A stretch of 53,582 nt of DNA from a virus. Taxonomy: Duplodnaviria > Heunggongvirae > Uroviricota > Caudoviricetes. Under the pieces are notes generated by a model. It saw only the letters and a list, made by a program, of their open reading frames with translations, was not told the origin of the DNA and searched no databases. The position numbers were made by a program, and so were the translations under genes. Below, one piece after another: positions 1-53,582 of the stretch. The stretch is taken from the IMG/VR virus record IMGVR_UViG_2923318301_000003. The stretch is one strand, 5' to 3'. Position 1 is the first letter of the stretch, and each line of letters begins with the position of its first letter.

Positions 1-1209
1 CTACTTTGTAGCGTTCACCAGCAAAGAAATACATGAATTATGATTAGCGTTTATATAGTCCGCATACCACTGCATCATCTCCCTACGTCCTTCCAAATAC
101 AACGCATGGTTATACGTCCCACGAATCGCATTTTTATCAACGTGAGCCAGCTGGGTTTCAATCCACGCTGTATTGAAACCTTCCTCATGCAAAATCGTAC
201 TCATCGTGTGACGGAAACCATGCCCCGTTACCCTCCCCGTATATCCAATCCGCTTAAAAACCTGATTAATACTCGCTTCACTCATCGTCTTGCGGGGATC
301 ATTACGTCCCGGGAACACCAGTGGATATTGCCCTGACATCACTTTGAGTTGCTGTACGATTTCCAGCGCTTGGGTAGAGAGGGGGACAAGGTGAGGCCGT
401 TTCATCTTCATACGCTCGGCAGGTATCTCCCACACCGCTTTTTCAAGATCAAACTCACTCCAGAAAGCACCTCGGAGTTCGCCAGTGCGAACTCCCGTGA
501 GGATCAGCAGACGTGCCGCAAGAACAACTAACGGGCTTCCTGTGTAGCCTGCGAGAGCTTTAAAAAAGTCTGGTAACTCCTCAACAGTAAGGAAGGGATA
601 ATGCTTCGATTCATGCCCTGACATCGCGCTGGTAAGATCCGCTGCAGGATTGTATTCCGCACGACCGGTTACGATGGCGTAACGAAAGACTTCGCTGCAA
701 CGCTGGCGAACCTTCTTGGCCTTCTCTGTCGCGCCACGGCTTTCAATTCGACGCAGCACATTAAGCAGAACCAGCGGTTTGATTTCATTCACCGGTTGTT
801 GGCCAATATAGGGAAAAATATCTTTATTAAAGGCTTCGATAATGTCCGAGGCATAACCTTCTGACCATCGGCTCACCTTCGTTCCATGCCATTCAAGTGC
901 CACAGCCTGAAACGTATTATTTAGCTGCACATCTCGAACCAGCTTTTCTTCTTTCTTGGCAAGCGATGGATCGATACCTTCGGCAAGCTTTTTCTTGGCG
1001 TCGTCACGCAGTGCCCTCGCTTGTGCAAGGGACACTGCCGGATAGACACCAAAGGCCATACGCTTCTCTTTTCCATTGAAGCGATATTTCATCCGCCAGT
1101 ATCTGGAACCAGAGGGAACAACCTCAAGATACAAACCAGCACCATCTGCCAGCTTATAGGCTTTCTCTCTGGGTTTAGCTGCGTCTACCTGTCGCGCATT
1201 AAGTTTCAT
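1..1209 (-). CDS. P4-type tyrosine integrase of a second thrW-associated island that continues left of the window
   Basis: 415-aa ORF (likely start at MKLNARQ). C-terminal HGFRHT...LAH...Y motifs typical of tyrosine recombinases, with a P4/CP4-like N-terminus. Start faces the tRNA-Thr 3' repeat at 1371..1418; stop codon is at 1..3. Confidence 0.85.
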   Translation of the reverse strand: MKLNARQVDAAKPREKAYKLADGAGLYLEVVPSGSRYWRMKYRFNGKEKRMAFGVYPAVSLAQARALRDDAKKKLAEGIDPSLAKKEEKLVRDVQLNNTFQAVALEWHGTKVSRWSEGYASDIIEAFNKDIFPYIGQQPVNEIKPLVLLNVLRRIESRGATEKAKKVRQRCSEVFRYAIVTGRAEYNPAADLTSAMSGHESKHYPFLTVEELPDFFKALAGYTGSPLVVLAARLLILTGVRTGELRGAFWSEFDLEKAVWEIPAERMKMKRPHLVPLSTQALEIVQQLKVMSGQYPLVFPGRNDPRKTMSEASINQVFKRIGYTGRVTGHGFRHTMSTILHEEGFNTAWIETQLAHVDKNAIRGTYNHALYLEGRREMMQWYADYINANHNSCISLLVNATK

Positions 1210-1370
1210 TGGGGGCATCTCCCTAGACCGAACACAAAATGCCCCCACTTATGCCCCCAACTGCGACTTGATTTCGGTTGAGTCTAGTTGATAACAGGAG
1301 ATAAGATACGGGCCAGAAACCGCAGTATACGAGCTTTTAGTTGATTTCGGTAGACTTGGGAAGAGTTTGA

Positions 1371-1418
1371 AATGGTGCCGATAATAGGAGTCGAACCTAC
1401 GACCTTCGCATTACGAAT
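1371..1418. repeat. 48-bp direct repeat identical to the 3' end of tRNA-Thr (distal att core copy)
   Basis: aatggtgccgataataggagtcgaacctacgaccttcgcattacgaat is identical to 52137..52184; the two copies diverge immediately afterwards. Confidence 0.85.
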
Positions 1419-2165
1419 TATAAGAATCCGCTTCTAATTCAAAGTATTACCCCATCAACACTGTGCTCACACGTCCCACCACATCAAAACATGTAAAGCC
1501 TTGCAAGCCATTGTGAGGCCTTATGTGTCTCAGTTTTGTCCCACCTTGTATTATGACTTGCATAGCCAATGAAGATAAACGTGACGACAAACAGCGCAGC
1601 AGTCTTCTTTTCTTTCACACTTTCCCCAATCAGCATACATACTTTCTACCATAACTGTAGTGAATGTCTGTTATGAGCGAGCAAAAGAGATTCAATTACC
1701 GGGGAATTACTCCGACATAAGCTCTCCCAGAAACACCGGAACAGCGATTCGCATATTCTCTTCTATACTTTCAGTCTGACCGGCTGGAGATTTCATAGCA
1801 AGAAAATGGATGCGCCAAGACCTATGCGGGAAAGAGGCTGAGGAAATAATTGCCGATAGCACTGTGCCCGACGAAAAGTTAATCTGGCACGCAATGACGC
1901 GCGTCCTTGGGGCATCAGGAATCAGAGAGCCAACTTAACAACCCATTACATATTATTTAACCGGACTGTTACATGTACAAAGTTCAATGATTAGTGATTC
2001 TGTGACGCCACATACAACCTAAGCCCCTGATATAAAACCAGTCTATGCAACACCTAAAAATCATATATGATAGGGTGATAAGTCAACGCGCAGTATAAAA
2101 ATTAAGCTAAAAAATGCTTTCAGCATAGTGAATCTATTTCACACTACATAATTAAGGATGAAAAA

Positions 2166-3011
2166 ATGACTGCACCAGTAATTAGTTTTATCAATATGAA
2201 AGGTGGGGTTGGTAAAACAACTTTATGCGTTGGGATTGCTGAGTTTTTAGCCAACCATATGGGGCGCAAGGTTCTAGTTATCGATATTGATCCTCAATTT
2301 AATGCCACTCAGTCCTTAATGGGGCATTATGATCGAGTAGAAGAATATATGACTGCCCTTCGCCCTAATAATCAAACCATTCGAAAGATTTTTGAGCTTC
2401 CAAATTCATTAATGGAAGATGAAAAGAAAGTGACACCAGAACAGGTCATTACTAAAGTTTCAGACAATCTTGATATTATCTTAGGTGATATAAACATTAT
2501 CTTTGATACTAACCAAGAGGGTATTAGAATAAAAATGTTGCGTAAATTCATCACCGAAAATGACTTAAAAGAAAGTTACGACTATATCTTTATCGATAGC
2601 CCCCCAACAATCTCATTATTTACAGATACCGCACTCCTTGCTTCTGATTATTATCTTACTCCGGTTAAAATTGATCACTACTCGGTGCTTGGAGCAAGCA
2701 GTTTAAATAGCGTTATAAGAAATATGCGCACACATCATGAGAAAGAAATCAAGCAAGTCGGTTACATTTATACAAACACTGATGCTGAAATGACCAATAA
2801 AACAAGGGAAATTAAAGAACAATTCGAAAACCATACTCAATTTACAAATTTTTATTTCTTTGAAAATCAATTAACCTACGTGCGTGATTTAATGGTAGGT
2901 TATCAAGGAAATATTCCTTCTTGTTATTCAAAGTCACGCCAAGATATAGAAAAGATCTGTAACGAATTTATTAACAGAGTGGCTCACTTGGAAGGTAACA
3001 CAAATGAATAA
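2166..3011 (+). CDS. ParA/MinD-family deviant Walker-A ATPase, first gene of a three-gene operon
   Basis: N-terminal MKGGVGKTT (KGGxGKT deviant Walker A); 281 aa; AT-rich; 8-nt overlap with the next gene. Confidence 0.8.
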   Translation: MTAPVISFINMKGGVGKTTLCVGIAEFLANHMGRKVLVIDIDPQFNATQSLMGHYDRVEEYMTALRPNNQTIRKIFELPNSLMEDEKKVTPEQVITKVSDNLDIILGDINIIFDTNQEGIRIKMLRKFITENDLKESYDYIFIDSPPTISLFTDTALLASDYYLTPVKIDHYSVLGASSLNSVIRNMRTHHEKEIKQVGYIYTNTDAEMTNKTREIKEQFENHTQFTNFYFFENQLTYVRDLMVGYQGNIPSCYSKSRQDIEKICNEFINRVAHLEGNTNE

Positions 3012-3402
3012 ACAATTAATTAAAGCGCTCAATAAAGCTAATAATATGCCCATGACCAAAGAAAACTTCTTAGGCTTGGTAATTATGTTGATTCTTTCAA
3101 AAGAGGTTTTTAGATCAAATTTTGATGTTAGTAAATTTATTAACAAAACCTTCAAAATATCTTTTTTGAATTATGCTGTACGGTCAAGAACTTTGATGTG
3201 CGCTAAAATTTGCAGACATATTAATGAATTAAGTGAGAATGACATAAAGATGGCTTATACGCATTTCTTAAACAACATTAACACATTAGACATTATTTTT
3301 AATGATGCAAATAAAACAAGCCAAAAATCCACATCTAAAAGCAAGCATGCTATAAGGAATTTAAATATTTGGATTAATGCAAATAAAAAGGAAGAAGAAT
3401 AA
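3004..3402 (+). CDS. Hypothetical protein, operon partner of the ParA-like ATPase
   Basis: 132-aa ORF overlapping the upstream stop; its stop overlaps the next start (ATGA at 3402). No recognisable motif. Confidence 0.6.
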   Translation: MNKQLIKALNKANNMPMTKENFLGLVIMLILSKEVFRSNFDVSKFINKTFKISFLNYAVRSRTLMCAKICRHINELSENDIKMAYTHFLNNINTLDIIFNDANKTSQKSTSKSKHAIRNLNIWINANKKEEE

Positions 3403-4067
3403 TGCTCACGCAGGATCCCTTCAACATTGGAAGAGATGTAAATTATTTTAGAGCGGAGGTGCAAAAGCACCTCAGAACCACTGATGAAATAAACAAATCA
3501 GTATCAATATTTAGGCAAATAAGTCTTTGTAATACAATTTTAAGTCACAATCCTAATCTAAATCACTCTTCTTATATAAAAGGTTTTATATATGATACCT
3601 TAAACTCCTTAATTGCCATTATAAAAAAAAGAGAACGGTATCTCCAACTGAACTTCCGCTCAATGGTGGAGCATGTGGCCAGAATAAGCCTCAATAAGAA
3701 CTACAATGGTGGGGATTTTGACCAAACTGTACGTCGTAGAGACTTTGACTTCTTAAAAGCCCAACAAGTCGATGAAGGCTGGTCTTATTTACATAATGTC
3801 TATATCAACGCCTGTTATTATGTTCACTCCTCCCCCCAAGCGAACCTAAATGTTACATCAACATTTATATCACTTATGGAGGGAGATTGTAATTCAACAC
3901 AGCATAAAATGGTGAAAAAACTTCATGAGGTAGTATCGGCGCTGATGAGAATCATTATAAAGTATTATCATCAGCATATCTCAAACATTTTCTTTAGAAA
4001 CAAAAAGGATTTAGAGAAAATAATGGGAAAAAGCCTTTATTCATATTATACCAGCTTAGACAATTAA
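3402..4067 (+). CDS. Hypothetical protein, third gene of the ParA-like operon
   Basis: 221-aa ORF translationally coupled to the upstream gene; contains R-x4/5-H spacings (RAEVQKH, RSMVEH), which are not diagnostic. Confidence 0.6.
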   Translation: MLTQDPFNIGRDVNYFRAEVQKHLRTTDEINKSVSIFRQISLCNTILSHNPNLNHSSYIKGFIYDTLNSLIAIIKKRERYLQLNFRSMVEHVARISLNKNYNGGDFDQTVRRRDFDFLKAQQVDEGWSYLHNVYINACYYVHSSPQANLNVTSTFISLMEGDCNSTQHKMVKKLHEVVSALMRIIIKYYHQHISNIFFRNKKDLEKIMGKSLYSYYTSLDN

Positions 4068-4862
4068 TTCTCTCATATTCATTGCGTAGAGCATAAATAT
4101 CTATCTAACCACCTAAAATGCCAGAAAATCTAGTTGTATACCGGTGCGAAAATATCTCGCGTTTCATCTGCCACTGCTGCTGAATGCCCTGCCCAGCGAA
4201 ACAGAGTGTTTCCTTCCCGTCTTTTGCATTGAGGTGCTCCAGCACGCTCATTAACTTTTCGCTCCCAGGACCCAGCGCGTTATCGTCGAATAGGTTAGGG
4301 CATGCTCTGACTGAAGAAGTCCCCCAGCATTACCCCGGCTTTCTGATATCGGTGTCCGTCTTTCCATATTGCATCCAGACTCCCCGTTGCTACTGCAATG
4401 ATATCCCGACTGTCCTGTGTCGGGATGAGCAGCTTCACCGACGCGCTGTTACAGTAGTACGACTCGTTCAACGCAAAGGGTATCGTGTAAAACCGATGAT
4501 GACACTGCCGGCAATCAGCACTGACGTCAGCAAACGTGAGAAAGAACAGATAAGCCGAACGATTTAGGAAATGTTTGAAGAGACTGATATGTGGATGGTT
4601 TCAGTTTAAACGCCTTGAACCGTCATATTACCTAAGTACAATCCGCTGTGACTGGCAATCATTCAATACTTGCACTATCAAAAGTGCATCAGCCAACCGC
4701 AGCACGTCTTGCATACGACCTGTCTGCGGTTTCAATCACCTCTCACCACCAGTCCCATCAATAATAATTAAACAGCGCCTAAACAAAATAAATAACAACA
4801 AGTCAACAACCTCGACAGGATGCCGATGGGATGTAAGCGACTCATCAGAACCGTATTGATAT

Positions 4863-6434
4863 TTACTGAGAGCTCAGATCAACTTTCCAGGGCAACAGAT
4901 CGCGTACCCGGTTTGCCGGCCAGTCCTGGATATGTTCAATGACGTAACGCAGCCACTTTTCTGGCTCCACATTGTTCAGACGGCATGTGCCGATCAGCGA
5001 GTACAACACCGCCGCATGTTCACCACCGCTGTCGGAACCCGCGAACATCCAGTTTTTCCGGCCTACGGCCACTCCCCGTAAGGCGTTCTCTGCGATGTTG
5101 TTGTCGATTTCCACCCAGCCATTACTGCAGTACACGTTCAGTGCATCCCACTGTTTCAGCAGGTATGCGAACGCTTTTGCCGTATCTGAGTGACGCGACA
5201 GTGTTTTCATCTGTTGCTGTATCCAGTCATACAGTGACTGCATCAGTGGCGCGGCTCTGGCTTTTCTTGCCGCCAGACGCTGTTCTGCTGAACAGCCCCG
5301 GACCTCTGCCTCGATGGCATACAGTTCACCGATACGCTGCAGGGCTTCCGTGGTGATGTAGGTGGGCGCTCTTGCATGCACATCGTGGATTTTTCTCCGG
5401 GCATGAGCCATACACGCGGCTTCCGTTATTCTGCCGGATTCGTATAACGCCCGGTAACCACCGTAAGCATCGGCCTGAAGCACACCGCTGTAACCGGCCA
5501 GGTAATTTTGTGGATGGATACCTTTCCGGTCCGGACTGTACGCGAACCAGACCGCCGGGGGCATCTGTGAACCGGCGTTACGGTCATCACGGACGTAGAC
5601 CCACAGCCGGGCTGTCCGGGTTTTACCGCTGCCCGGCTCCTGGACCGGGACGGGGATATCATCAGCATGGACTTTACCGGGCATCAGCACATACTGGCGC
5701 AGGACGTCATACAGCGGCTCCAGCAGTTCAGCAACAGCACCTGTCCAGCGCCCCAGTGTGGCACGGCTCAGCTCCACTCCCTGACGACGGTATATTTCTG
5801 ACTGGCGGTATAACGGCAGATGGTCTGCATATTTCCCGGTGACAACATGGGCCAGAAGCCCCGCTCCGGCATAACTGCGTGCAATGGGTTTTGAAGGTAC
5901 TGGTGCCTGCACGATATGGTCGCACCGGCAACAGGCCTGTTTCGGACGTTGTGTTTCGATAACCTTAAAGGCGCTGCTGATAAGCTCCAGTTGCTCTGAC
6001 ACATCACATCCCAGAGAACTGAGTTCACCACCACAGGCAGGACAGCATTCCTCTTCCGGCCGGATAACCCGGGTTTCACGGGGAAGTGAGGCCGGTAACG
6101 GTTTACGGGCTGAAGACTGGCGCAGGGCGGATGGCAGTACCGGGTCATATTGCTCACCCAGCGTTTCCGCCATTTCTTCCTGAAGTGCGCTGATTCGCTC
6201 CTGTGCTTCCTGTATCTGCCGTTCGGTTTTTGCACGAAGTTTTTCTGAGCTTTTACCGAACTGCATACGTTGCAGTTTCGCAACCAGCGCCTTCAGCCGG
6301 TTGATTTCGGAAGCATAAGCCGCCACCCGCTGTGAGAGCAGGCGGTTGTATTCAGCCATCTGGCGGATGGTGTCCTGTTGCGTCTGCAACAGTGCCCGCA
6401 GGCGGGCGTTCTCATGAGCAAGTGAGGTGTCCAT
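4863..6434 (-). CDS. IS66-family transposase TnpC
   Basis: 523-aa ORF with N-terminal coiled-coil/leucine-zipper, a Cys-rich zinc-finger-like segment (CPACGG...CCRCD) and a DDE-type core; typical IS66 TnpC layout. Confidence 0.85.
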
Positions 6435-6453
6435 ATCCTCACTTTACAACGGG

Positions 6454-6801
6454 TTATATGCGGATTCCAGCGCGTTCCGTTCGTTTCGGGTGCTTCCAGT
6501 TGATACCTTCAAGAAGCATGGATAACTGAGCCGGAGTAAGGTGCACCTTGCCGTCACGGGTGACTGGCCAGACGAAGCGGCCCCGCTCCAGGCGTTTGGT
6601 GAAGAGGCACAGTCCGTCACTGTCAGCCCACAACACTTTTATCTGGTCACCCCGGCGTCCGCGGAAGATGAACAGGTGTCCGGAGAACGGGTCATCCTTC
6701 AGGACGTTCTGAACTTTTGATGCCAGGCCGTTAAAGCCATTTCGCATATCGGTGATACCTGCAACCAGCCAGATACGCGAACCTGCAGGGAGAGATATCA
6801 T
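6454..6801 (-). CDS. IS66-family TnpB (Orf2) accessory protein
   Basis: 115-aa ORF between orfA and tnpC with the conserved IS66 Orf2 character (WLVAGITDMRNGFNGLA...). Confidence 0.8.
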   Translation of the reverse strand: MISLPAGSRIWLVAGITDMRNGFNGLASKVQNVLKDDPFSGHLFIFRGRRGDQIKVLWADSDGLCLFTKRLERGRFVWPVTRDGKVHLTPAQLSMLLEGINWKHPKRTERAGIRI

Positions 6802-7478
6802 CAGTGGCTGCTCCCTTTTATTTCGCGGATAAGTGTCTGTAATAACGCCGGCGTCAGTTTACCTTTAAGCCTGAGAGTTCCGGCCGGCAGAACCAGCTCA
6901 CAACACAGACTGTCGGACGGTGTATTTATCTGCTCTGGTTCCTGTGCGGGGGCCGGGATTTTATTATCCGGCTCCGGCGTTAACGTCACGGGAAGCAGTG
7001 CCGGCATATTTTTTCCGGAAGGCAGCAGGCCACCTTTCCGGTATTGATGGCGCCAGTTGAAGAGCAGGTTATCGTTGATTCCGTTTTCCCGGGCGATCTG
7101 CGCCACACAGGCTCCGGGCTGCAGTGACTGCTCCACTAAGGCGATTTTAAACTCATAAGGGAAGTTGGGCCGCCGGGGACGTTTTTTTACCACGGGGGCT
7201 TCGGATATAACGGTGCTTTCAGGACGTACGACTGGTACCGTGGAAAATTGTCCGTAAAGGCAGGCATCAAGTTCCTGCTCCGACATGCCTGCGGGCAAAG
7301 GCCACGAAAGGCCAGCTCTCCGAAAGCGCACGAACATACTACAAACTGTTGATTTTGGTACACCCAGGCGACGCCCGGCCACAACCCGGGGTAAATGTTC
7401 TTCAAAGTGAAGACGTAAAGCTTCAGTGATCCAGGTCCGGTGTTTCATACGATAGTGTCCATTAAAAATGATGGACAT
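6801..7478 (-). CDS. IS66-family OrfA (Orf1)
   Basis: 225-aa ORF whose stop overlaps the tnpB start. HTH-like N-terminus. True start may be the internal Met (MKHRTW). Confidence 0.7.
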   Translation of the reverse strand: MSIIFNGHYRMKHRTWITEALRLHFEEHLPRVVAGRRLGVPKSTVCSMFVRFRRAGLSWPLPAGMSEQELDACLYGQFSTVPVVRPESTVISEAPVVKKRPRRPNFPYEFKIALVEQSLQPGACVAQIARENGINDNLLFNWRHQYRKGGLLPSGKNMPALLPVTLTPEPDNKIPAPAQEPEQINTPSDSLCCELVLPAGTLRLKGKLTPALLQTLIREIKGSSH

Positions 7479-7644
7479 TATTTTTGTAGAGCCGGAGGAA
7501 ACAGACCAGACGGTTTAAATGAGCCGGTTACGATGGGATGATGAAGAGATAAGAAAGAATAACTAGTAAAGCCCTAAAACGTCAGCGTTCAGACGCGTTT
7601 TTTACTTAACCGGTAACAAATACGTTGTATCATAGCAACATAAA

Positions 7645-9594
7645 ATGATTGTTCTAAATCAGATTAACTCCTCACTTTTGTACAATGTCGCTTACAGGTA
7701 TACCATGAAATCCGAGACGCTAACTGTCCAACAACTTTTTCAAGACCGCCGACAATACTGTGTTCCATTCTATCAACGTGCCTATGTATGGACTCAGCGA
7801 AACCAATGGTCAGCTCTACTGGAGGATATCCTAGAGAAAGCACAATCCCGGCTCTCGGGTACAAAACCAACTCCCCATTTCCTTGGTGCAGTGGTACTGG
7901 AACCTCAACCAAAAAAAGGATTATTCGGTGTAGATTCCATACATATTATTGATGGTCAGCAACGATTGACCACTCTTCAATATGTTCTGGCATCCATCCG
8001 ATTAGCATTACGTGCGACAGATCTTTCCAACTTAGAGCCTCTCATTTCGTCTTGCCTGAAAAACTCAAACGAAGACACAATGCGAAATAAAGAAGTAGAG
8101 CGCTTCAAACTGTGGCCAACTTTTCGGGATCAAACTCATTTTATTCAAAGTTTTAATGTTGAAAATATTGACGATATCCGGAATGTATTCTCTGATAGTT
8201 TCACGCAGCATGGTACGTTGCGTAAGCATTTTAATCACCCGCCATCACTAGAAGCATTATGTTTTTTTACTGAAGCCTTTATAAAGTGGATTAAAATAGA
8301 AAATCACTCACCACGAGAAAATGCTGTAGCATTAATTGAGGCTGTCTTGACGGATCTGAAACTAGTAAGCATATTTCTCGAGGCTGAAGATGACGCTCAA
8401 ATAATTTTTGAAACATTAAATGGCAGAGGTGCGGAACTTCATGCCACAGATCTTATTCGCAATTATATTTTTATGTGCGCTGAACATGAAAATATTAATG
8501 CTGTTGAATTATATGAGAATGAGTGGAAGATCTTTGAAGATACGTACTGGTCAGAAAGACAACGTCGTGGTCGTATTAATAAACCACGCATGGAGTGGCT
8601 AGTGCATGCAACATTGCAATCAGAAAGGCAACGTGAAATCGATCTGTCTCGTCTTTACAATGAGTATCGTGATTATGTAAGTAAGGACTTGCCTTCACAA
8701 CGAGCAGATCTGCAAGTAAAGCGCCTCAAACAATATGCATCACAATATAAAGAATTGGTTGGTGGTTTTGGCACAACCCCCATCTCACACTTTGGACATC
8801 GCATCGCAGCCTATGATGTGACGACACTTTATCCGCTTGCTTTGTTCATTTCGATAGCTAACATCGCCGATGATGAGAAAGCAGCCATGTATAATGATCT
8901 TGTCTCCTACGTAGTACGAAGAGCCGTATGTGGCCTGACGCCAAAGAATTACAACAATGTATTTATGAATGTATTGCGGCACTTGTCTAAAACAGAAATT
9001 TCCAGTGTTGAGTTACGTAATATCCTCAATAGCTTAAATGGCGAAGCCTCACGTTGGCCTGGGGACTCAGAATTTCTCAACGCTTGCATCAATGCTCCAC
9101 TTTATCCTGGCAGGCTCGACGCACCGAAAATGCGCTCAATGTTAACGGAACTTGAAAGAGAACTTTGTCGCCAAGTGAAGACAGAGAAGCCTGATGTTCC
9201 AAATCTTTCTAACCTCGATATCGATCATCTTATGCCTCAAAGTTGGTATTCCTGTTGGCCTCTCGAAAATGGTCATATGGTGACAAATTCAGATGCTACG
9301 GTATTGAACCAAATTGTTCTGTCTGGAACCGATCTTACCCCAGAACAGCTACTGGTAAGGAAACGGCAACAAGCGATAGCTACGTTGGGAAATCTAACTT
9401 TGCTTAACCTTAGCGTAAACCGTTCTGTTCAGAATGCTGTATTTCTGAAAAAACGTGATGCTCTCATCGTCCACACCAATCTACGACTGAACATTCCACT
9501 TATAGTTAAGGATAAATGGGATGAGGATGAAATCCTGGAGCGGGGTAAAAAGTTGGGGGAAATTGCATTGAAAGTATGGCCAAAACACGATTAA
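7645..9594 (+). CDS. Fused DUF262/DUF1524 protein, GmrSD-family type IV (modification-dependent) restriction endonuclease-like
   Basis: N-terminal ParB-like/DUF262 hallmark (IIDGQQRLTTLQ) and C-terminal His-Me finger/DUF1524-like motif (DIDHLMPQSW); 649 aa. Alternative start at 7705. Confidence 0.75.
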   Translation: MIVLNQINSSLLYNVAYRYTMKSETLTVQQLFQDRRQYCVPFYQRAYVWTQRNQWSALLEDILEKAQSRLSGTKPTPHFLGAVVLEPQPKKGLFGVDSIHIIDGQQRLTTLQYVLASIRLALRATDLSNLEPLISSCLKNSNEDTMRNKEVERFKLWPTFRDQTHFIQSFNVENIDDIRNVFSDSFTQHGTLRKHFNHPPSLEALCFFTEAFIKWIKIENHSPRENAVALIEAVLTDLKLVSIFLEAEDDAQIIFETLNGRGAELHATDLIRNYIFMCAEHENINAVELYENEWKIFEDTYWSERQRRGRINKPRMEWLVHATLQSERQREIDLSRLYNEYRDYVSKDLPSQRADLQVKRLKQYASQYKELVGGFGTTPISHFGHRIAAYDVTTLYPLALFISIANIADDEKAAMYNDLVSYVVRRAVCGLTPKNYNNVFMNVLRHLSKTEISSVELRNILNSLNGEASRWPGDSEFLNACINAPLYPGRLDAPKMRSMLTELERELCRQVKTEKPDVPNLSNLDIDHLMPQSWYSCWPLENGHMVTNSDATVLNQIVLSGTDLTPEQLLVRKRQQAIATLGNLTLLNLSVNRSVQNAVFLKKRDALIVHTNLRLNIPLIVKDKWDEDEILERGKKLGEIALKVWPKHD

Positions 9595-9616
9595 TGCAAT
9601 TAATAAAATGATTATA

Positions 9617-9640
9617 GCGGCCTTACATTAGTAAGGCCGC
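9617..9640. terminator. GC-rich hairpin immediately downstream of the GmrSD-like gene
   Basis: gcggcctta-cattag-taaggccgc, a 9-bp perfect stem; no strong U-tract on the + strand, so terminator function is tentative. Confidence 0.4.
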
Positions 9641-9989
9641 TACTCACTATTAAATCCTTTAATTTGCAACAAGAACAGCAGTGTCAGCCCTAGGTTTCGG
9701 ACTTTGTACCGCTTATCTTGTCTTCAAAAATCAGCTCGCATCCTGCACAGTTCAGCGCATTACGAATCTGTAGCACCAATCTTAACTATCTGTTTTAGCA
9801 AGCATTAACCGCATTCACTAAGCTATAGTTGATGGCACAAACAGAAAGTTGATGCATGATGTTGTCATGTGTATGTCACAAATGCGGCACAACGATCTTC
9901 AAACATGTAGCCACACATCCACAGAAGAGCACAAAGCCTTGCAATCCAGTGCAACGCTTTGTGTACCATAGTTTTTCCTTATCAACTAC

Positions 9990-10192
9990 CGCAAGTATCG
10001 ATCGATGGAGGCTTGGATGTTAAATTTCATGACTTTGATCACTTGGTGCATCACGAAACTATCGAAGTGCAACTCGCTCATGCCAACGGCGGATCTGTGC
10101 GTGGGATTTACAACCATGCTCAGTATCTAGATAAGCGCAGAGAAATGATGCAGTGGTGGGCTGATTACATCGATGGTCGTGCAGGAGTGTAA
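9990..10192 (+). pseudogene. Remnant of the 3' end of a P4-type integrase gene
   Basis: Translation ...ETIEVQLAHANGGSVRGIYNHAQYLDKRREMMQWWADYIDGRAGV aligns with the C-terminus of the integrase at 1..1209 (...ETQLAHVDKNAIRGTYNHALYLEGRREMMQWYADYI...). No N-terminal or catalytic domains upstream. Confidence 0.55.
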
Positions 10193-10196
10193 GCCA

Positions 10197-11228
10197 TTAC
10201 GCGAATTCTTCCACGATCGCCATGCCAGTAGCACCATCACCACCGGTAAATGCCGTACCGGTAAACCCAAGGTCATACGCGCCACCACCACCGGATCCGG
10301 GAGCTGCGCCAGCAATACCGGCCTGAGAACCCGCCCGGCCACCGCCGCCAAAATACGACGCCCCGCCGTTGCCCGTCAGAAGGCTTGAGCCTGTCTGTCC
10401 ATCTGAGCCGGTACCACCGTTGATCCTGATATCTCCGGTCGCCGCCGTACCTCCGGCGCCGCCGGCGGTATTGGACACGCCTGACTTCACGCCGCCTTTC
10501 CCGCCAGGAGCTGAGAACAGGCTGGCAAACGAGGTAGCACCACCATCCGCACCACTTACTGCGCCAACTCCGCCCTTACCACCCTTGCCGACAGTAATCG
10601 CGTAAGAACTGGCAGCAGACAGGTCAACCCATACGATAATGGTCGCACCCGCACCGCCGCCGGCACCGGAGAAGGTTTCTGTATTGTTGGAGGCCTGGCA
10701 GCCGCCACCGCCACCACCGGCGCCGGTCAACGTTACTTTTGCATAACGGGCCAGAGGAGATCGCGTATAGGTTCCGTTTGCATAGAAAGCTTTTGGAGCG
10801 CCAAGAGAACGCCCGACAAAACCAGAGGAATCAGATATTCCGAGGTTATAACGGGCTTCATTTACCGCATCTTCACCGGCATCTTTAATTTCTGACAGGT
10901 TATTACTGATCTGCAGGAAAGATAATAATGACCCGGCGGTCATTAAATTCGCGACAATGTCATTCGTTGACCATACGCGCGCCGTAGTTCCTTCCTGACC
11001 ACGAATTACTGTCATCACGTCACCAGATACAGATGTGACGTGCATAATTTCAGAAATTGTTTTCGTGGCCGCGTCGGTTATCGTTAATTTGAAATAACTC
11101 TGTCCCGAAACTGGCGATGGGAATAAAGACCCCGCTCCAGTACCCACGGTAATAACGGTAGCGGACGCGCTAATACCCGCAGCGAGCACACTCTTTGCGT
11201 TATTATTGGCTAATAGTTTCAACGCCAT
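10197..11228 (-). CDS. Glycine-rich tail-fibre-associated protein (distal fibre or receptor-binding partner)
   Basis: 343-aa ORF directly downstream of the side tail fibre gene; long GGxGG-rich repeats typical of phage fibre proteins. Occupies the tfa position but is larger than lambda Tfa. Confidence 0.6.
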   Translation of the reverse strand: MALKLLANNNAKSVLAAGISASATVITVGTGAGSLFPSPVSGQSYFKLTITDAATKTISEIMHVTSVSGDVMTVIRGQEGTTARVWSTNDIVANLMTAGSLLSFLQISNNLSEIKDAGEDAVNEARYNLGISDSSGFVGRSLGAPKAFYANGTYTRSPLARYAKVTLTGAGGGGGGCQASNNTETFSGAGGGAGATIIVWVDLSAASSYAITVGKGGKGGVGAVSGADGGATSFASLFSAPGGKGGVKSGVSNTAGGAGGTAATGDIRINGGTGSDGQTGSSLLTGNGGASYFGGGGRAGSQAGIAGAAPGSGGGGAYDLGFTGTAFTGGDGATGMAIVEEFA

Positions 11229-11286
11229 ATATACCCCCGCAAATCAAAAGGCCGTATTATTTAGGCCTTTTGATTTCTATTTTCCA

Positions 11287-14200
11287 TTAATTGTAGCCAT
11301 ATGACAGCCAAAGGTCGGCAAGCGTTGACGCCACAAAGCACGGGTCATACATCGTGCTGCCAGCCGCACTGCTGCCGTCAAAATCAAAGAAGCGCTTTGG
11401 TAGTCCCGGTTTCGGCCCGTACTGCGTCTCAAAAATTCCGAACAGCGATTTTGCGGCAATCATTGCTGACGGCCTGGCGGACTGAAACAGCGGCAGTAAC
11501 GCAAACGCGATAGTGTTCGCGCCACCACGTCGGCTTTCAGAGATGCAGTAATCCACCTCACTGAATCCTCCCGCGCTGTTTGACGCTGTCAGGATAAAAT
11601 TCACCAGGTCAAACTTTGGTGTCCGGTTAAGCAGCTTGCAGGCCAGCAGGTAGTTATTAGTGGCGTAAACCATGTACGGCAGGTACATGCTCTTCAGCGT
11701 GGAATCCGACGGGCCATCGAGAATAATGTTTTCCGCTTTCATGAATGTCGCTGAGTTCGTGATGAAGGTCTCCAGCGCATTGAATGCAGCAAGGTACGTC
11801 CCGCCGGTATCCAGCCCCATATAAATCGCCAGCGCCAGCACGCGCATGGCTGTCGCGTTAGAGTTGCTGTTTCCTGAGTTTGTGGCTGTCCCCACCAGAG
11901 CCACGCCACCATAGGTGTTATATGACACCATGACGGCATCCGCGAGGGATTTAATCCCCGCCTTCAGCTCGGTTTGTTTGGCTGTATCTCCGGCCTTCAC
12001 CGCCATTTTGTAGAGCCACTCATAGCACGGAATACTCAGACGCGACTGGAACTGCAACCCCCACCATCCATCAGTGAACATAATACCTGGATTAGTTATG
12101 CCGCCAAATCCCCTCATGTACGATTTAAAATTCGTATACACTGTGTTCAGCGTGCTGATGCCATACTTTTCTAACAGAAAAATCTCTGCCATGTGGCAAT
12201 AGAACTGCGTTTTCACATCGGGTCCGCCACCATAAACAGTAGCGTCAGTGCTTTTCCACCACTCAACGGATCCCCTGACGTGACAGGCGATTTTCTCCAG
12301 CATGTCCAGCCGCAGAACACCTGCATAACTGCAATCACCCATGAACCCTACCGGGCGGTTGTTAGCCTGACTTACCAGCAGTGCATTAACCTCTGAGGTG
12401 GAACTGGTGATGGTGTTGTCGCAGTCAATCCATGTCTCATGTGTCCACGTCCAGTTTTTTGGCACAGGCCAGTTCAGGAATGAATCGTCATTCAGGTCAA
12501 CGAAAAGCCATCCCGCGTCCAGCCGAGTTGTTGTGCCTGTGGGTTGCAGCGCCGTTGCCCGTATCGGGCGCGTTGGCCCATAAGCAGGGCCATCTCGGTG
12601 GATATCCCCATTAGCAAAGACCGTCGTGGCCGTAAATCGCTTGCCGGTGACTGAATCCGTCCAGTACGTCAGTGCTCTAGCGGCATCAAAGGTATATGCA
12701 CCATCATTCAGGTTCAGACGGGAATATGCACCAAATAATACTCCAGCCGGAATATCTTGCGTAGCCGTGGTCATGACCCGGATAAGCACCTTGCCATTTT
12801 TGAAAATCCGGTAGCGTACTGTGGACTGTAACGCCCCTTCAGCCAGTGTTCCGATGGTCCGGTTTCTGACGGTCAGCTCCAGCTCAGTAAAGACCGGCCC
12901 GGTATTAACCATGCGCAGTGATGCACCGAGCACCATCTTGTTACTTGAGGATCCGCCGGAGACAATCCCGGTACAGTAACAGGAATGCGCAAAACTGTGC
13001 GTCTGTCCTGCCGGGTCGGTGATACTGGTCAGCCCCAGGCTGTTCTGGCGCTGGAAAAAATACACATACCCGCCCACGGTAACGGTGAACCCGTCAGCCA
13101 CCCTCACGAGCTGCGGGAAGGACTCTGAGGCCAGGTCCTGGCGGCGACGATTGTATGCCCTGAGTTCGTAATATTTCTGCTGTCCTGATGCCAGGGTATC
13201 GGTGATGAACACAGACCCTGATGCCAGGGAGCCGTCGGCATGGTATCCGGTGTTCGATTTCAGGCGTGGATTGGGATAAACGTTATCCGCAAACTGGCAG
13301 TCAAACACGTTGCCGTCAGCGTCCATCACCTTCAGCGCATCGGAGTCCGGCACCTCGCCGGGACCAAACGACACCTTAAGCTCAACGGGATAGTTTTTAT
13401 ATTCTGCCGACAGCAGATTTTTGACGTCTGCACTTTTGCGCAGATAGTGGCCGACCAGAACCGGACGTGCCACCTTGCGCCGCCAGATGGCATACGTACC
13501 CGCTGGCAATACGGCCAGTCCTGAAGGCGCAAACCCATCACGGCTAACTGTATAGTCACCAGCAGGTAACTGAATCCTGAAAAAATCCTCAAACCCTGTC
13601 TGGGCGATCGTCGTATCATATGCCGCATATGCCGCAAAGAGGCAATCTGGCGCTATTGAGTTGATGTAATCAACAACGGTCGACGCCGTATAACCAGCAG
13701 CCGTAAGTTCAGCGATGGTAACCACGAACTGAATGGCGTTGGCAATTGCTGTCCCGGATATTGACTTCCTTGTGACGGAGTTAACTGAGCCTGCCTGCGC
13801 CGGATAAAACTTGCCTGTAATATCAAGTGCAATATAGTTTGAGCCTGCTACCGGAACACCAAACCCAGCCGGCAGGTCATAGCGAACCCGAACTACACTA
13901 CTGGTCGTTTCCAGAATGGAAACATACTTCAAATCCTGAAATCGGAACAGGCGATACGCTGACCAGAATTTACCATCAGAATACTGGGTGTTCGTCCCAG
14001 GAAAAACCAGTGACGCAACCTCAGAACCCAGCGAAGAAAAAACAAGGCGATAGAAGTTTGTGTTTACATCCGTAGTGGTTGCCAGAGACAAAAATTCTAA
14101 TACTGAATTTTCCGGTAATGGTAGTGCTGTATCATCAAGAGATTTGAATTCAATCAAATCCTGATAATCACCATTTTTTCTTCTAGTTGCTTCTCTTGAT

Positions 14201-15027
14201 ATAGACGAAGATAGGCTGTACTGGGAAATAATTGTTCTCCCGGTTGCAGTCATAACCCCGGATGTATTTACATACTCGTCAGCCAGCGAGGTATTTATAG
14301 CACTGGTTACCCAGCATTTTGAACCAGAAAGAATATTGCCAGCGTCTGCATCAGCCTGTGCCGCCTCCAGCGTGGGAAATTCGCGGATTGTCCCTGTTAT
14401 AGCAGCTGTGCCTGGCTGAGAAGCCTGTAGTATAGCCACGCCATCCTGGTTCTCGTAGGTTTTGAATGCCGCTGTTGCTCCCGGGCCTTCCGCTACACGG
14501 AAAGACTGCCCGCTGGTAGTAGCAGCAAGGCCTGCAATTGTACCGTCCGGATCGCTCGGCGTTTTATAGAACGTGAACTTATTCAGCGCATATTCAGAAG
14601 CATTGCTCGCGAACTCTTCGGCCTGAGAGGCAGAAATAGCAGCCTCTGCCGTGTTCTGTGCCACCGCGGACGCGTTACGCGCCACTTCTTCCACCATCAG
14701 CTCAAAACGGCGCAGTGCCTCCGGACGGGCATCATCCTCCGTCATGGCACCGAGAAAATCATTCAGCGTACCCGGTTGTGAGTCTTCATACACGGTGATG
14801 GTCCCGGCATGCGATGGCGGGAAGCCTTCCACCAACAGAATAACGCTGTACTGACCGTACTCAACGTCCATGCTGTAACGCCCGGCTTCATCCGGATTTT
14901 CTGAGGCCACCGTGTTCACCACCACCGTGGTGCTGTTACGTTTTGCTTTCAGCTGGATTGTGCAGTTCTGTACCGGTTTACCTGCGCCGTCTTTCAGTAC
15001 ACCTGAAATCTTTACTGCCATATTCAC
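11287..15027 (-). CDS. stf: Side tail fibre protein, chimeric (lambda Stf-like N-terminus, divergent distal region)
   Basis: N-terminal ~150 aa (MAVKISGVLKDGAGKPVQNCTIQLKA...) match lambda Stf from memory; the remaining ~1100 aa are not lambda-like; 1246 aa. Confidence 0.8.
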   Translation of the reverse strand: MNMAVKISGVLKDGAGKPVQNCTIQLKAKRNSTTVVVNTVASENPDEAGRYSMDVEYGQYSVILLVEGFPPSHAGTITVYEDSQPGTLNDFLGAMTEDDARPEALRRFELMVEEVARNASAVAQNTAEAAISASQAEEFASNASEYALNKFTFYKTPSDPDGTIAGLAATTSGQSFRVAEGPGATAAFKTYENQDGVAILQASQPGTAAITGTIREFPTLEAAQADADAGNILSGSKCWVTSAINTSLADEYVNTSGVMTATGRTIISQYSLSSSISREATRRKNGDYQDLIEFKSLDDTALPLPENSVLEFLSLATTTDVNTNFYRLVFSSLGSEVASLVFPGTNTQYSDGKFWSAYRLFRFQDLKYVSILETTSSVVRVRYDLPAGFGVPVAGSNYIALDITGKFYPAQAGSVNSVTRKSISGTAIANAIQFVVTIAELTAAGYTASTVVDYINSIAPDCLFAAYAAYDTTIAQTGFEDFFRIQLPAGDYTVSRDGFAPSGLAVLPAGTYAIWRRKVARPVLVGHYLRKSADVKNLLSAEYKNYPVELKVSFGPGEVPDSDALKVMDADGNVFDCQFADNVYPNPRLKSNTGYHADGSLASGSVFITDTLASGQQKYYELRAYNRRRQDLASESFPQLVRVADGFTVTVGGYVYFFQRQNSLGLTSITDPAGQTHSFAHSCYCTGIVSGGSSSNKMVLGASLRMVNTGPVFTELELTVRNRTIGTLAEGALQSTVRYRIFKNGKVLIRVMTTATQDIPAGVLFGAYSRLNLNDGAYTFDAARALTYWTDSVTGKRFTATTVFANGDIHRDGPAYGPTRPIRATALQPTGTTTRLDAGWLFVDLNDDSFLNWPVPKNWTWTHETWIDCDNTITSSTSEVNALLVSQANNRPVGFMGDCSYAGVLRLDMLEKIACHVRGSVEWWKSTDATVYGGGPDVKTQFYCHMAEIFLLEKYGISTLNTVYTNFKSYMRGFGGITNPGIMFTDGWWGLQFQSRLSIPCYEWLYKMAVKAGDTAKQTELKAGIKSLADAVMVSYNTYGGVALVGTATNSGNSNSNATAMRVLALAIYMGLDTGGTYLAAFNALETFITNSATFMKAENIILDGPSDSTLKSMYLPYMVYATNNYLLACKLLNRTPKFDLVNFILTASNSAGGFSEVDYCISESRRGGANTIAFALLPLFQSARPSAMIAAKSLFGIFETQYGPKPGLPKRFFDFDGSSAAGSTMYDPCFVASTLADLWLSYGYN

Positions 15028-15751: not shown

Positions 15752-19153
<3,402 letters not shown>

Positions 19154-50734: not shown

Positions 50735-51084
50735 TGGAGCCATACAGCCTCACACTCGATGAGGCCTGTCATTTTCTCAAGATATCCAGACCGACTGCCA
50801 TTAACTGGATACGCACAGGGCGTCTTCAGGCAACACGCAAAGATCCCACTAAGAATAAATCTCCTTACCTCACAACACGACAAGCCTGCATTGCGGCTCT
50901 TCAGTCTCCGCTGCATACTGTCCAGGTGAGCGCGGGTGATGGCATAACAGAGGAAAGAAAATGTCACTCTTCCGCAGAGGTGAAATATGGTACGCCAGTT
51001 TCACATTGCCGAACGGTAAAAGATTTAAACAGTCTCTTGGAACAAAGGACAAAAGGCAGGCGACAGAACTCCATGACAAGCTAA
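50734..51084 (+). CDS. Excisionase-like HTH protein (3' boundary uncertain; overlaps the integrase start)
   Basis: The N-terminus [30 protein letters not shown] is a typical excisionase/AlpA-type HTH; the open frame runs ~120 nt into the integrase gene. Confidence 0.55.
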
Positions 51085-52124
51085 AGGCTGAAGCATGGCG
51101 GGTCAGCAAACTTGGTGAAATACCTGATATAACGTTCGAGGAAGCGTGTGTCAGGTGGCTTGAAGAGAAAGCACATAAAAAATCACTGGACGATGACAAA
51201 AGCCGGATCGGATTCTGGCTTCAACATTTCGCAGGAATGCAACTAAGAGACATTACTGAATCAAAAATTTATTCAGCAATGCAGAAAATGACGAACCGGC
51301 GTCATGAGGAAAACTGGAAACTCAGGGCAGAAGCATGCAGAAAAAAAGGGAAACCTGTTCCAGAATACACGCCAAAACCAGCGTCCGTTGCAACGAAGGC
51401 TACGCATCTTTCATTTATAAAGGCCCTACTAAGAGCCGCAGAGCGTGAATGGAAAATGCTGGATAAGGCACCAATTATTAAAGTGCCCCAACCAAAGAAT
51501 AAACGGATCCGCTGGCTGGAGCCCCATGAAGCACAAAGGCTGATTGATGAATGTCCGGAGCCATTAAAGTCTGTTGTTGAATTTGCACTGGCAACAGGCC
51601 TAAGACGCTCGAACATCATCAACCTTGAATGGCAACAAATAGATATGCAGCGCCGGGTGGCATGGATAAACCCGGAAGAGAGTAAATCAAACCGCGCAAT
51701 TGGCGTTGCGCTGAATGATACTGCATGTCGCGTATTGAAAAAACAAATCGGGAATCATCACCGTTGGGTATTTGTGTACAAGGAAAGCTGTACCAAACCA
51801 GACGGAACGAAAGCGCCAACAGTCAGGAAGATGCGGTATGACGCAAACACAGCCTGGAAAGCAGCGCTGAGACGGGCTGGTATTGATGATTTCAGATTTC
51901 ACGACTTGAGACACACCTGGGCAAGTTGGCTGGTTCAAGCCGGAGTCCCGTTGTCAGTGTTACAGGAAATGGGAGGCTGGGAGTCTATCGAAATGGTTCG
52001 TCGATATGCTCACCTTGCACCTAATCACCTTACCGAACACGCACGGCAAATAGACTCGATCCTGAACCCATCGGTCCCAAATTTGTCCCAGTCAAAAAAT
52101 AAGGAAGGTACTAATGATGTGTAA
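50961..52124 (+). CDS. Prophage tyrosine integrase
   Basis: 387-aa ORF; C-terminal [39 protein letters not shown] catalytic region; ends 13 nt from the att core and tRNA. Confidence 0.9.
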
Positions 52125-52136
52125 CTTATTGATTTT

Positions 52137-52184
52137 AATGGTGCCGATAATAGGAGTCGAACCTACGACCTTCGCATTACGAAT
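52137..52184. repeat. att core within the intact tRNA-Thr (proximal copy of the 48-bp repeat)
   Basis: Identical to 1371..1418. Confidence 0.85.
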
Positions 52185-52214
52185 GCGCTGCTCTACCAAC
52201 TGAGCTATATCGGC
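52139..52214 (-). tRNA. thrW: tRNA-Thr (anticodon CGU)
   Basis: 76-nt cloverleaf on the - strand: GCCGATATAGCTCAGTTGGTAGAGCAGCGCATTCGTAATGCGAAGGTCGTAGGTTCGACTCCTATTATCGGCACCA; adjacent to proA as in E. coli. Confidence 0.9.
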
Positions 52215-52328: not shown

Positions 52329-53582
52329 TTACGCACGAATGGTGTAATCACCAATGCCGATCCACTTGTAAGTGGTCAGTGCTTCCAGCCCCATTGGGCC
52401 ACGCGCGTGGAGTTTTTGTGTGCTTACCGCCACTTCCGCACCCAGACCAAACTGGCCGCCGTCGGTAAAACGCGTAGAGGCGTTAACGTAAACAGCGGAC
52501 GAATCCACTTCGTTAACAAAACGCTGGGCGTTGCGCATATCGCGGGTCAGGATCGCATCGGAGTGTTGTGTGCCGTGTTCACGAATATGGGCGATGGCAT
52601 CGTCAAGATCGCTGACGATTTTGACGTTCAAATCTAATGACAGAAACTCATCGTCATACTCTTCGGCTTTAACAGCAACCACCTTCGCAGGGCCTGCCTG
52701 CAACTGCGCCAGTGCAGCTGCATCTGCGTGTAATGTCACGCCGCTTTCCGCCATTTGTTTGCTTAATGCGGGCAGGAAGCTATCGGCGATGTTTTTATTC
52801 ACCAGCAACGTTTCAACCGTATTACATGTGCTCGGACGCTGAGTTTTCGCGTTGACGATCACTTTTAATGCTTCAGCGATCTCTACACTTTCATCAACGT
52901 AAATATGGCATACGCCTATACCACCTGTGATCACCGGGATTGTCGACTGTTCACGGCACAGTTTATGCAAACCAGCGCCACCACGCGGGATCAGCATGTC
53001 GATGTATTTATCCATACGCAGCATTTCACTGACCAGCGCACGGTCAGGATTATCAATCGCCTGCACGGCACCCGCCGGTAAGCCGCAGGATTTCAGGGCG
53101 TCCTGAATCACCGCCACCGTTGCAGCGTTAGTGCGACACGTTTCTTTGCCACCGCGCAGGATCACCGCATTACCGGTTTTCAGGCACAGCGAAGCGACAT
53201 CAACCGTCACGTTCGGGCGCGCTTCATAAATCACGCCAATAACCCCCAGCGGTACGCGACGACGCTCAAGACGCAGGCCGCTGTCCAGTACGCCGCCATC
53301 GATTACCTGCCCCACCGGATCGGCGAGGTTGCACACCTGACGTACATCGTCGGCAATGCCTTTCAGCCGTGCGGGCGTCAGTGCCAGACGGTCAAGCATC
53401 GCTTCGCTAAGGCCATTGGCTCGCGCGTCAGCAACATCCTGGGCGTTAGCGTTGAGGATGATTTCGCTTTGTGCTTCCAGTTCATCGGCGATTTTTTCCA
53501 GCACGCGATTTTTTTCGCGGCTGGAGAGTTGCGCTAATTTATACGAGGCTTGCTTCGCGGCAATGCCCATTTGTTCCAGCAT
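52329..53582 (-). CDS. proA: Gamma-glutamyl phosphate reductase
   Basis: 417-aa ORF starting [13 protein letters not shown], recognised as E. coli ProA; the start codon is at the window edge. Confidence 0.95.

Follow-up and report, generated by a model that had tools for sequence, protein, structure and literature searches.

A complete ISCro1 (IS66 family) insertion with an 8-bp target duplication in a tRNA-Thr att-bounded block, and its empty site in related Escherichia coli chromosomes

Main finding

The window analysed here, a stretch of 53,582 nucleotides, contains at 4833..7531 a complete copy of ISCro1, an insertion sequence (IS) of the IS66 family with a length of 2,699 bp and with its genes on the minus strand, which is framed by two copies of the 8-bp sequence GATGGGAT where related E. 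coli chromosomes carry this sequence only once. Almost certainly, a single ISCro1 transposed into the non-coding stretch between a DinI/UmuC remnant and a GmrSD-like gene and thereby duplicated the 8-bp GATGGGAT. An earlier note, made from the raw sequence, had described a simple and recent insertion of an IS66-family element with intact genes and an 8-bp target duplication, and this description proved correct to the base. The element is a known and ordinary IS without new biology of its own, found here at a new, lineage-specific site. The coordinates of the element and its surroundings are given in Table 1.

Table 1 Features of the ISCro1 insertion and its surroundings (window coordinates).
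Feature	Position	Strand	Basis or remark
Left copy of the 8-bp target-site duplication, GATGGGAT	4825..4832	.	Sequence; single in the empty site
Terminal inverted repeat, tnpC-distal end (IRR), GTAAGCGACTCATCAGAACCGT	4833..4854	.	17/22 match to the opposite end
tnpC, DDE transposase, 523 aa	4863..6434	-	Pfam and NCBIfam profiles; WP_023149734.1
tnpB, IS66-type accessory protein, 115 aa	6454..6801	-	Pfam and NCBIfam profiles; WP_000624622.1
tnpA, helix-turn-helix accessory protein, 225 aa	6801..7478	-	Pfam and NCBIfam profiles; WP_001339397.1
Terminal inverted repeat, tnpA-proximal end (IRL), ...ACGGTTTAAATGAGCCGGTTAC	7510..7531	.	Opposite end and independent sites
Right copy of the 8-bp target-site duplication, GATGGGAT	7532..7539	.	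Sequence; single in the empty site
GmrSD-like / DUF262 gene, intact, outside the IS	7705..9594	+	Pfam GmrSD_N and GmrSD_C
Tyrosine integrase	50961..52124		Adjoins the tRNA
Aldehyde-dehydrogenase-family gene, beyond the tRNA	52329..53582		Pfam Aldedh

Gene content and identity of the element

All three ORFs of the element are intact, and their coordinates and lengths equal those of the RefSeq proteins annotated in the E. coli strain SCEC020023 (NZ_CP025950.3), which bears out the reading of an intact orfA, tnpB and tnpC. The transposase TnpC matches the Pfam profiles LZ_Tnp_IS66, zf-IS66, DDE_Tnp_IS66 and DDE_Tnp_IS66_C, the DDE_Tnp_IS66 match (E = 7e-103) extending over profile positions 1-283 of 284, and it reaches 476 bits with NCBIfam NF033517 (cut-off 180). 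TnpB matches Pfam TnpB_IS66 (PF05717, E = 4.7e-40) and NCBIfam NF033819 (128.9 bits, cut-off 50), and is unrelated to the TnpB nuclease of IS200/IS605 elements, while TnpA matches Pfam HTH_Tnp_1 and NCBIfam NF038385, 'IS66-like element accessory protein TnpA' (295.8 bits, cut-off 150). The stop codon of tnpA and the start codon of tnpB overlap by one base (TGATG), and tnpB and tnpC are separated by 19 nt containing GAGGA ahead of tnpC; this tnpA-tnpB-tnpC arrangement is the canonical layout of the IS66 family. Together, the DDE transposase TnpC, a TnpB located between tnpA and tnpC, a coupled upstream tnpA, termini with GTAA and an 8-bp duplication place the element in this family, and to these profile matches is added a nucleotide sequence that is 100% identical to annotated ISCro1 copies. 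The three NCBIfam profiles are equivalog models, and each protein scores above the curated cut-off of its model.

The IS66-family element of the earlier note can therefore be named more precisely from its sequence as ISCro1. By the ISfinder convention, isoforms are no less than 95% identical in nucleotide sequence to the named element along its whole length. The window element is 100% identical to PGAP-annotated copies, and the ISCro1 copy of plasmid pT28R-F3 (PMC12115866) is 99.7% identical to it. In that paper ISCro1 is described as belonging to the IS66 family, measuring 2,699 bp and generating a target duplication of 8 bp. Identity of 100% over positions 1..2699 extends to many plasmid and chromosomal copies in E. 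coli, and in the E. coli search all 25 of the 25 best-matching records are annotated as 'IS66-like element ISCro1 family transposase', together with tnpA and tnpB. At 99% identity or more the element occurs in 1,789 E. coli records, a near-complete ISCro1 copy is present in 1,492 of the 5,426 complete E. coli genomes, and in PLSDB 2,449 plasmids carry the element, most of which are conjugative and come from Escherichia, Shigella, Salmonella and Klebsiella. The allele in the window is the commonest ISCro1 allele. With 55% GC, the element is richer in GC than its flanks, which have 37% and 44%. That identical copies occur by the hundreds at differing sites gives indirect support to the view that ISCro1 may transpose by means of its three gene products.

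Ends of the element and length of the duplication

The imperfect inverted repeats and the direct repeats read in the earlier note lie exactly where it had placed them. IS66-family elements have imperfect terminal inverted repeats of about 20-30 bp that start with 5'-GTAA. The element in the window starts with GTAAGCGACTCAT... and finishes with ...ATGAGCCGGTTAC, and when its two inverted ends are compared (GTAAGCGACTCAT... against GTAACCGGCTCAT...), 11 of 13 and 17 of 22 positions agree, the chance of at least 17 matches in 22 being about 4e-7. The exact ends were compared with those at ten independent ISCro1 sites, a set which includes eight copies on separate E. coli, Klebsiella and Salmonella plasmids. 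Seven other copies with 100% identity all represent the same widespread insertion inside IS1A, with the duplication ACTGGGAC, and were therefore counted as one site. The termini GTAAGCG... and ...CCGGTTAC recur at all ten sites, and the flanking duplication measures 8 bp at eight of them, 9 bp at one (pPMK1-NDM) and is absent from one (pT28R-F3). The motif TGGGA, considered as a shared target motif, occurs at the window site and at the IS1 site and is absent from the other eight, so that no claim is made for it.

Since the boundaries are fixed independently by these other copies, the chance of an 8-bp match at both boundaries is 4^-8 = 1.5e-5; in the whole 53.6-kb window, GATGGGAT has only two further occurrences, at 16672 (+) and 46747 (-). 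Formally, the direct repeat comprises 10 bp, CGATGGGATG (4824..4833 and 7531..7540), which could suggest a native repeat, i.e., that the flanking 8-mers pre-existed or match by chance and that the IS arrived otherwise, for example by homologous recombination between IS copies. The copy on pT28R-F3, which lacks a duplication, fits such a route, as this plasmid arose by ISCro1-mediated homologous recombination (PMC12115866). However, the two extra bases in the window are the IS's own terminal G and C: in the target, GATGGGAT is preceded by C and followed by G, which are also the last and the first base of the IS, respectively. Because other ISCro1 sites have different neighbouring bases, several with a base other than G after the duplication and other than C before it, the uncertainty of one base at either end of the window element is settled in favour of terminal bases belonging to the IS and a duplication of 8 bp.

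The empty site and its occupancy in E. coli

The earlier note had proposed to reconstruct the empty site from related prophages lacking the insertion. For this, a query was assembled from the 800 bp of the left flank ending in GATGGGAT and the 800 bp of the right flank following the second copy, and was run against 5,426 complete E. coli genomes. The reconstructed junction is spanned in 43 of these genomes, and at least 26 chromosomes match the 1,600-bp empty junction at 100%, in one piece and with a single GATGGGAT, without any pre-existing two-copy repeat. Read directly in strain WCHEC005784, the empty site is ...GGATGCCGATGGGATGATGAAGAG..., again with one GATGGGAT. When the two occupied junctions were each searched separately, the same 5,426 genomes yielded a single occupied site, that of SCEC020023.

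The earlier note would have been refuted by flanking copies that pre-exist without the IS, but related genomes lacking the IS carry one GATGGGAT with contiguous flanks, which supports a simple insertion that created the duplication. The same observation refutes the pre-existing repeat, against which it also speaks that the SCEC020023 chromosome carries a single ISCro1 copy and that a search of the 53.6-kb window for a second copy found none; we regard this explanation as having practically no likelihood left. Simple transposition is thus supported by a contiguous empty site, a perfect duplication and, as set out below, low occupancy and few flank mismatches.

The sequences directly show what the element is, where it ends, what stood at the site before the insertion and that the target was duplicated. 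From what is known of the family, TnpC (DDE), with the accessory proteins TnpA and TnpB, would bind the GTAA...TTAC terminal repeats and join the IS ends to a target cut with an 8-bp stagger, and gap repair would then leave the 8-bp duplication, with the reservation that the chemistry of IS66-family transposition is still poorly characterised (PMC12898284). A plasmid probably served as the donor, given that the identical allele is found very commonly on plasmids, those of the IncF group among them, where it usually lies within an IS1.

Age of the insertion and relation to SCEC020023

The window and SCEC020023 share the insertion and show zero mismatches from 2270 to 11511, whereas the 44 substitutions between them all lie beyond 11.5 kb and are clustered in the prophage. 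SCEC020023 furthermore carries an IS903B in parA, with the 9-bp duplication GGTTCTAGT (2270..2278 in the window), and the window has no IS903B at this position. The absence of IS903B and the 44 differing positions rule out that the window is SCEC020023 as deposited, so that the two sequences come either from a pair of close strains or from different versions of a single assembly. The insertion, being common to at least two sequences, therefore predates their split, unless they are indeed two versions of one assembly.

Compared with the empty-site strain WCHEC005784, the window differs by 3 mismatches in 4,832 bp of the left flank and by 1 in about 2,190 bp of the right flank. The perfect duplication, the identity to the commonest allele, the occupancy of one genome in 5,426 against 43 with a continuous site and the four flank mismatches in about 7 kb indicate that the insertion is recent, in agreement with the earlier note. 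It would have a somewhat different history if horizontal transfer or recombination had brought in the occupied allele along with the island or prophage around it, instead of the IS having inserted in this strain. The locus does lie within a mobile block integrated at tRNA-Thr, and IS903B and the prophage-clustered substitutions distinguish the window from SCEC020023 although both have the insertion, two points which would fit an import; however, with SCEC020023 as the only occupied genome among the 5,426, a donor population is not visible. We consider such an import unlikely, and it would alter only the place of the transposition while leaving the nature of the feature as it is.

As a clean marker, the insertion records very recent IS activity in a single E. 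coli lineage, and it could serve for strain typing of the SCEC020023 lineage. In a wider sense, it illustrates how ISCro1 copies on plasmids give rise to chromosomal ones, through which recombination can later take place, and plasmid fusions driven by ISCro1 are documented (PMC12115866).

The att-bounded block around the insertion

The 3' part of tRNA-Thr(CGT) is repeated exactly, over 48 bp, at 1371..1418 and at 52137..52184. Because these repeats bound the region, ISCro1 lies inside an att-bounded block of about 50.8 kb. The tyrosine integrase lies next to the tRNA, beyond which follows the aldehyde-dehydrogenase-family gene, by our reading ProA-like. One part of the block is a lambdoid prophage with tail-fibre genes (10197..15027), head, lysis and early genes. 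The other part, a distal segment of 8.8 kb, is located between the tail-fibre genes on one side and the distal att repeat on the other; besides ISCro1 and the GmrSD-like gene, it holds ParA, two unknown ORFs and fragments of a peptidase, of UmuC, of DinI and of an integrase.

The earlier note had located the insertion in a cargo arm, which is a fair description of its position inside the att block between the tail fibres and the distal att repeat. The part of the claim that may not hold is the implied nature of the segment: it is a mosaic of pseudogene remnants with an integrase fragment, and its GmrSD part gave no megablast match among 50,697 phage records, suggesting that the 8.8-kb segment may be a decayed separate (tandem) island and not phage cargo.

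Possible effect on the GmrSD-like gene

The insertion is intergenic and breaks no gene. It lies 265 bp past the DinI pseudogene remnant and, as the earlier note had it, upstream of the GmrSD-like gene, the distance from the IS end to the gene start being 173 bp. For this gene the identical protein, WP_000834404.1, is annotated in occupied and in empty-site strains.

An influence on its expression, either by separation of the gene from an upstream signal or by transcription running outward from the IS end, is conceivable in view of afaA, whose transcript and promoter activity were lowered by an ISCro1 inserted 440 bp upstream (PMC8764528). In the window, a promoter-like site at 4615..4642 (+) is now 2.7 kb away from the GmrSD-like gene. 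Against such an effect, the IS genes are oriented, and hence transcribed, away from the gene, and a promoter-like site at 7606..7633, the sole match on the gene strand between the IS and the gene, still stands between the two. The position of these promoters is weak evidence in either case, because the scan of the region returned 3 matches against a mean of 2.6 in shuffled sequence and the matches do not exceed this expectation. A candidate terminator hairpin at 7576..7603 was rejected, its fold energy being no better than that of shuffled sequence (z = 0.13), and the terminator scan made no call there.

In other strains, IS3 (at about 4514) and IS1A (at about 4558) are inserted within 320 bp of the ISCro1 site, which fits a dispensable, non-essential landing zone and is a further point against a regulatory effect. 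Weighing these observations, we hold an altered expression of the GmrSD-like phage-defence gene to be improbable, if somewhat less so than the imported allele discussed above. The more specific possibility that ISCro1 switches this GmrSD-like type IV restriction gene down or up, and that the landings of IS3, IS1A and ISCro1 within 320 bp reflect selection instead of neutrality, appears very unlikely to us. With no gene interrupted, the IS genes facing away and a promoter-like match retained on the gene side, the insertion is most likely neutral.

Comparison with known elements

Han et al. (2001) reportedly described IS679 along with other canonical three-ORF elements of the IS66 family. IS679-type elements share with the window element the order tnpA-tnpB-tnpC, a tnpB start overlapping the tnpA stop, a tnpC following about 20 nt on, terminal repeats starting with GTAA, the 8-bp duplication and a size of about 2.7 kb. 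ISEc8, an IS66-family element of E. coli virulence plasmids, belongs to the same family and has distantly alignable transposase regions; with an alignment that covers only about 32% of the element, at about 71% nucleotide identity, it is nevertheless a different IS. In contrast, ISCro1 as previously described agrees with the window element in length, in the 8-bp duplication and in its three genes, and only the insertion site differs. ISCro1 and IS679 are listed separately (PMC3072379).

ISCro1 is named from Citrobacter rodentium ICC168. In this strain it is the most expanded IS, with 24 copies (PMC3072379).

Composition of the integrated block at tRNA-Thr

An exact 48-bp direct repeat corresponding to the 3' part of tRNA-Thr occurs in the window at 1371..1418 and 52137..52184, and its two copies delimit an integrated block of ~50.8 kb that comprises the lambdoid prophage and the segment extending from the ParA-type ATPase gene to the GmrSD-like gene. 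Because the second integrase lies immediately beyond the distal repeat, and hence outside this block, the arrangement suggests tandem islands at tRNA-Thr(CGT).

Pseudogene fragments are scattered over the distal segment that carries the ParA and GmrSD-like genes (4105..4567, 1798..1938 and 10058..10192), comprising the UmuC C-terminus (DUF4113), DinI, an SOS-response-associated peptidase and an integrase C-terminus, which makes the segment a decayed mosaic and not an orderly cargo module. The low-GC trio headed by parA adjoins defense-type genes, and neither its 132-aa nor its 221-aa ORF has a Pfam match. Megablast of the GmrSD-like part (7540..9700) gave no match among 50,697 phage records, yet this part lies inside the att-bounded prophage block.

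Features of the block and its borders
Feature	Position	Strand	Remarks
Second integrase	1..1209	-	
Low-GC ORF trio	2166..4067	+	37% GC
parA	2166..3011	+	ParA-type ATPase, first ORF of the trio; intact in the window
ORFs of 132 aa and 221 aa	within 2166..4067	+	overlapping, downstream of the ParA-type ATPase
Tail-fiber ORF	11287..15027	-	1,246 aa, intact; Pfam phage_tail_N
Integrase	50961..52124	+	
tRNA-Thr(CGT)	52139..52214	-	

Comparison with E. coli SCEC020023

While parA is whole in the window, it is interrupted in SCEC020023, the only genome with the same ISCro1 insertion, by an IS903B copy flanked by a 9-bp duplication (GGTTCTAGT, equivalent to window 2270..2278). Moreover, the two sequences differ at 44 positions, all located at 11.5-50 kb, with clusters at 15-16.6 kb and 41-45 kb. 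In contrast to the intact tail-fiber ORF of the window, the annotation of this region in SCEC020023 holds a 445-bp incomplete pseudogene alone, leaving ~3.5 kb without any feature; either the annotation has a gap here or one of the 44 mismatches is disruptive.

Target duplication and insertion sites of ISCro1

The ISCro1 copy of the Klebsiella pneumoniae plasmid pPMK1-NDM lies between 9-bp direct repeats (CAGTATTTA) instead of 8-bp ones, due either to an occasional 9-bp stagger or to an extra base, matching by chance, that shifts the register. A core TGGGA is common to the window target GATGGGAT (4825..4832) and the widespread IS1-internal target ACTGGGAC (IS1A site, loci L003..L009), but since it is missing from the other eight of the ten ISCro1 sites, a target motif is unsupported.

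In other E. coli strains (loci L018 and L019), IS3 and IS1A are inserted less than 320 bp from the ISCro1 site, at positions equivalent to window ~4512..4516 and 4554..4562, and share with ISCro1 the stretch of UmuC/DinI remnants that lies upstream of the GmrSD-like gene. One short non-coding zone has thus been hit by three different insertion sequences, IS3, IS1A and ISCro1.
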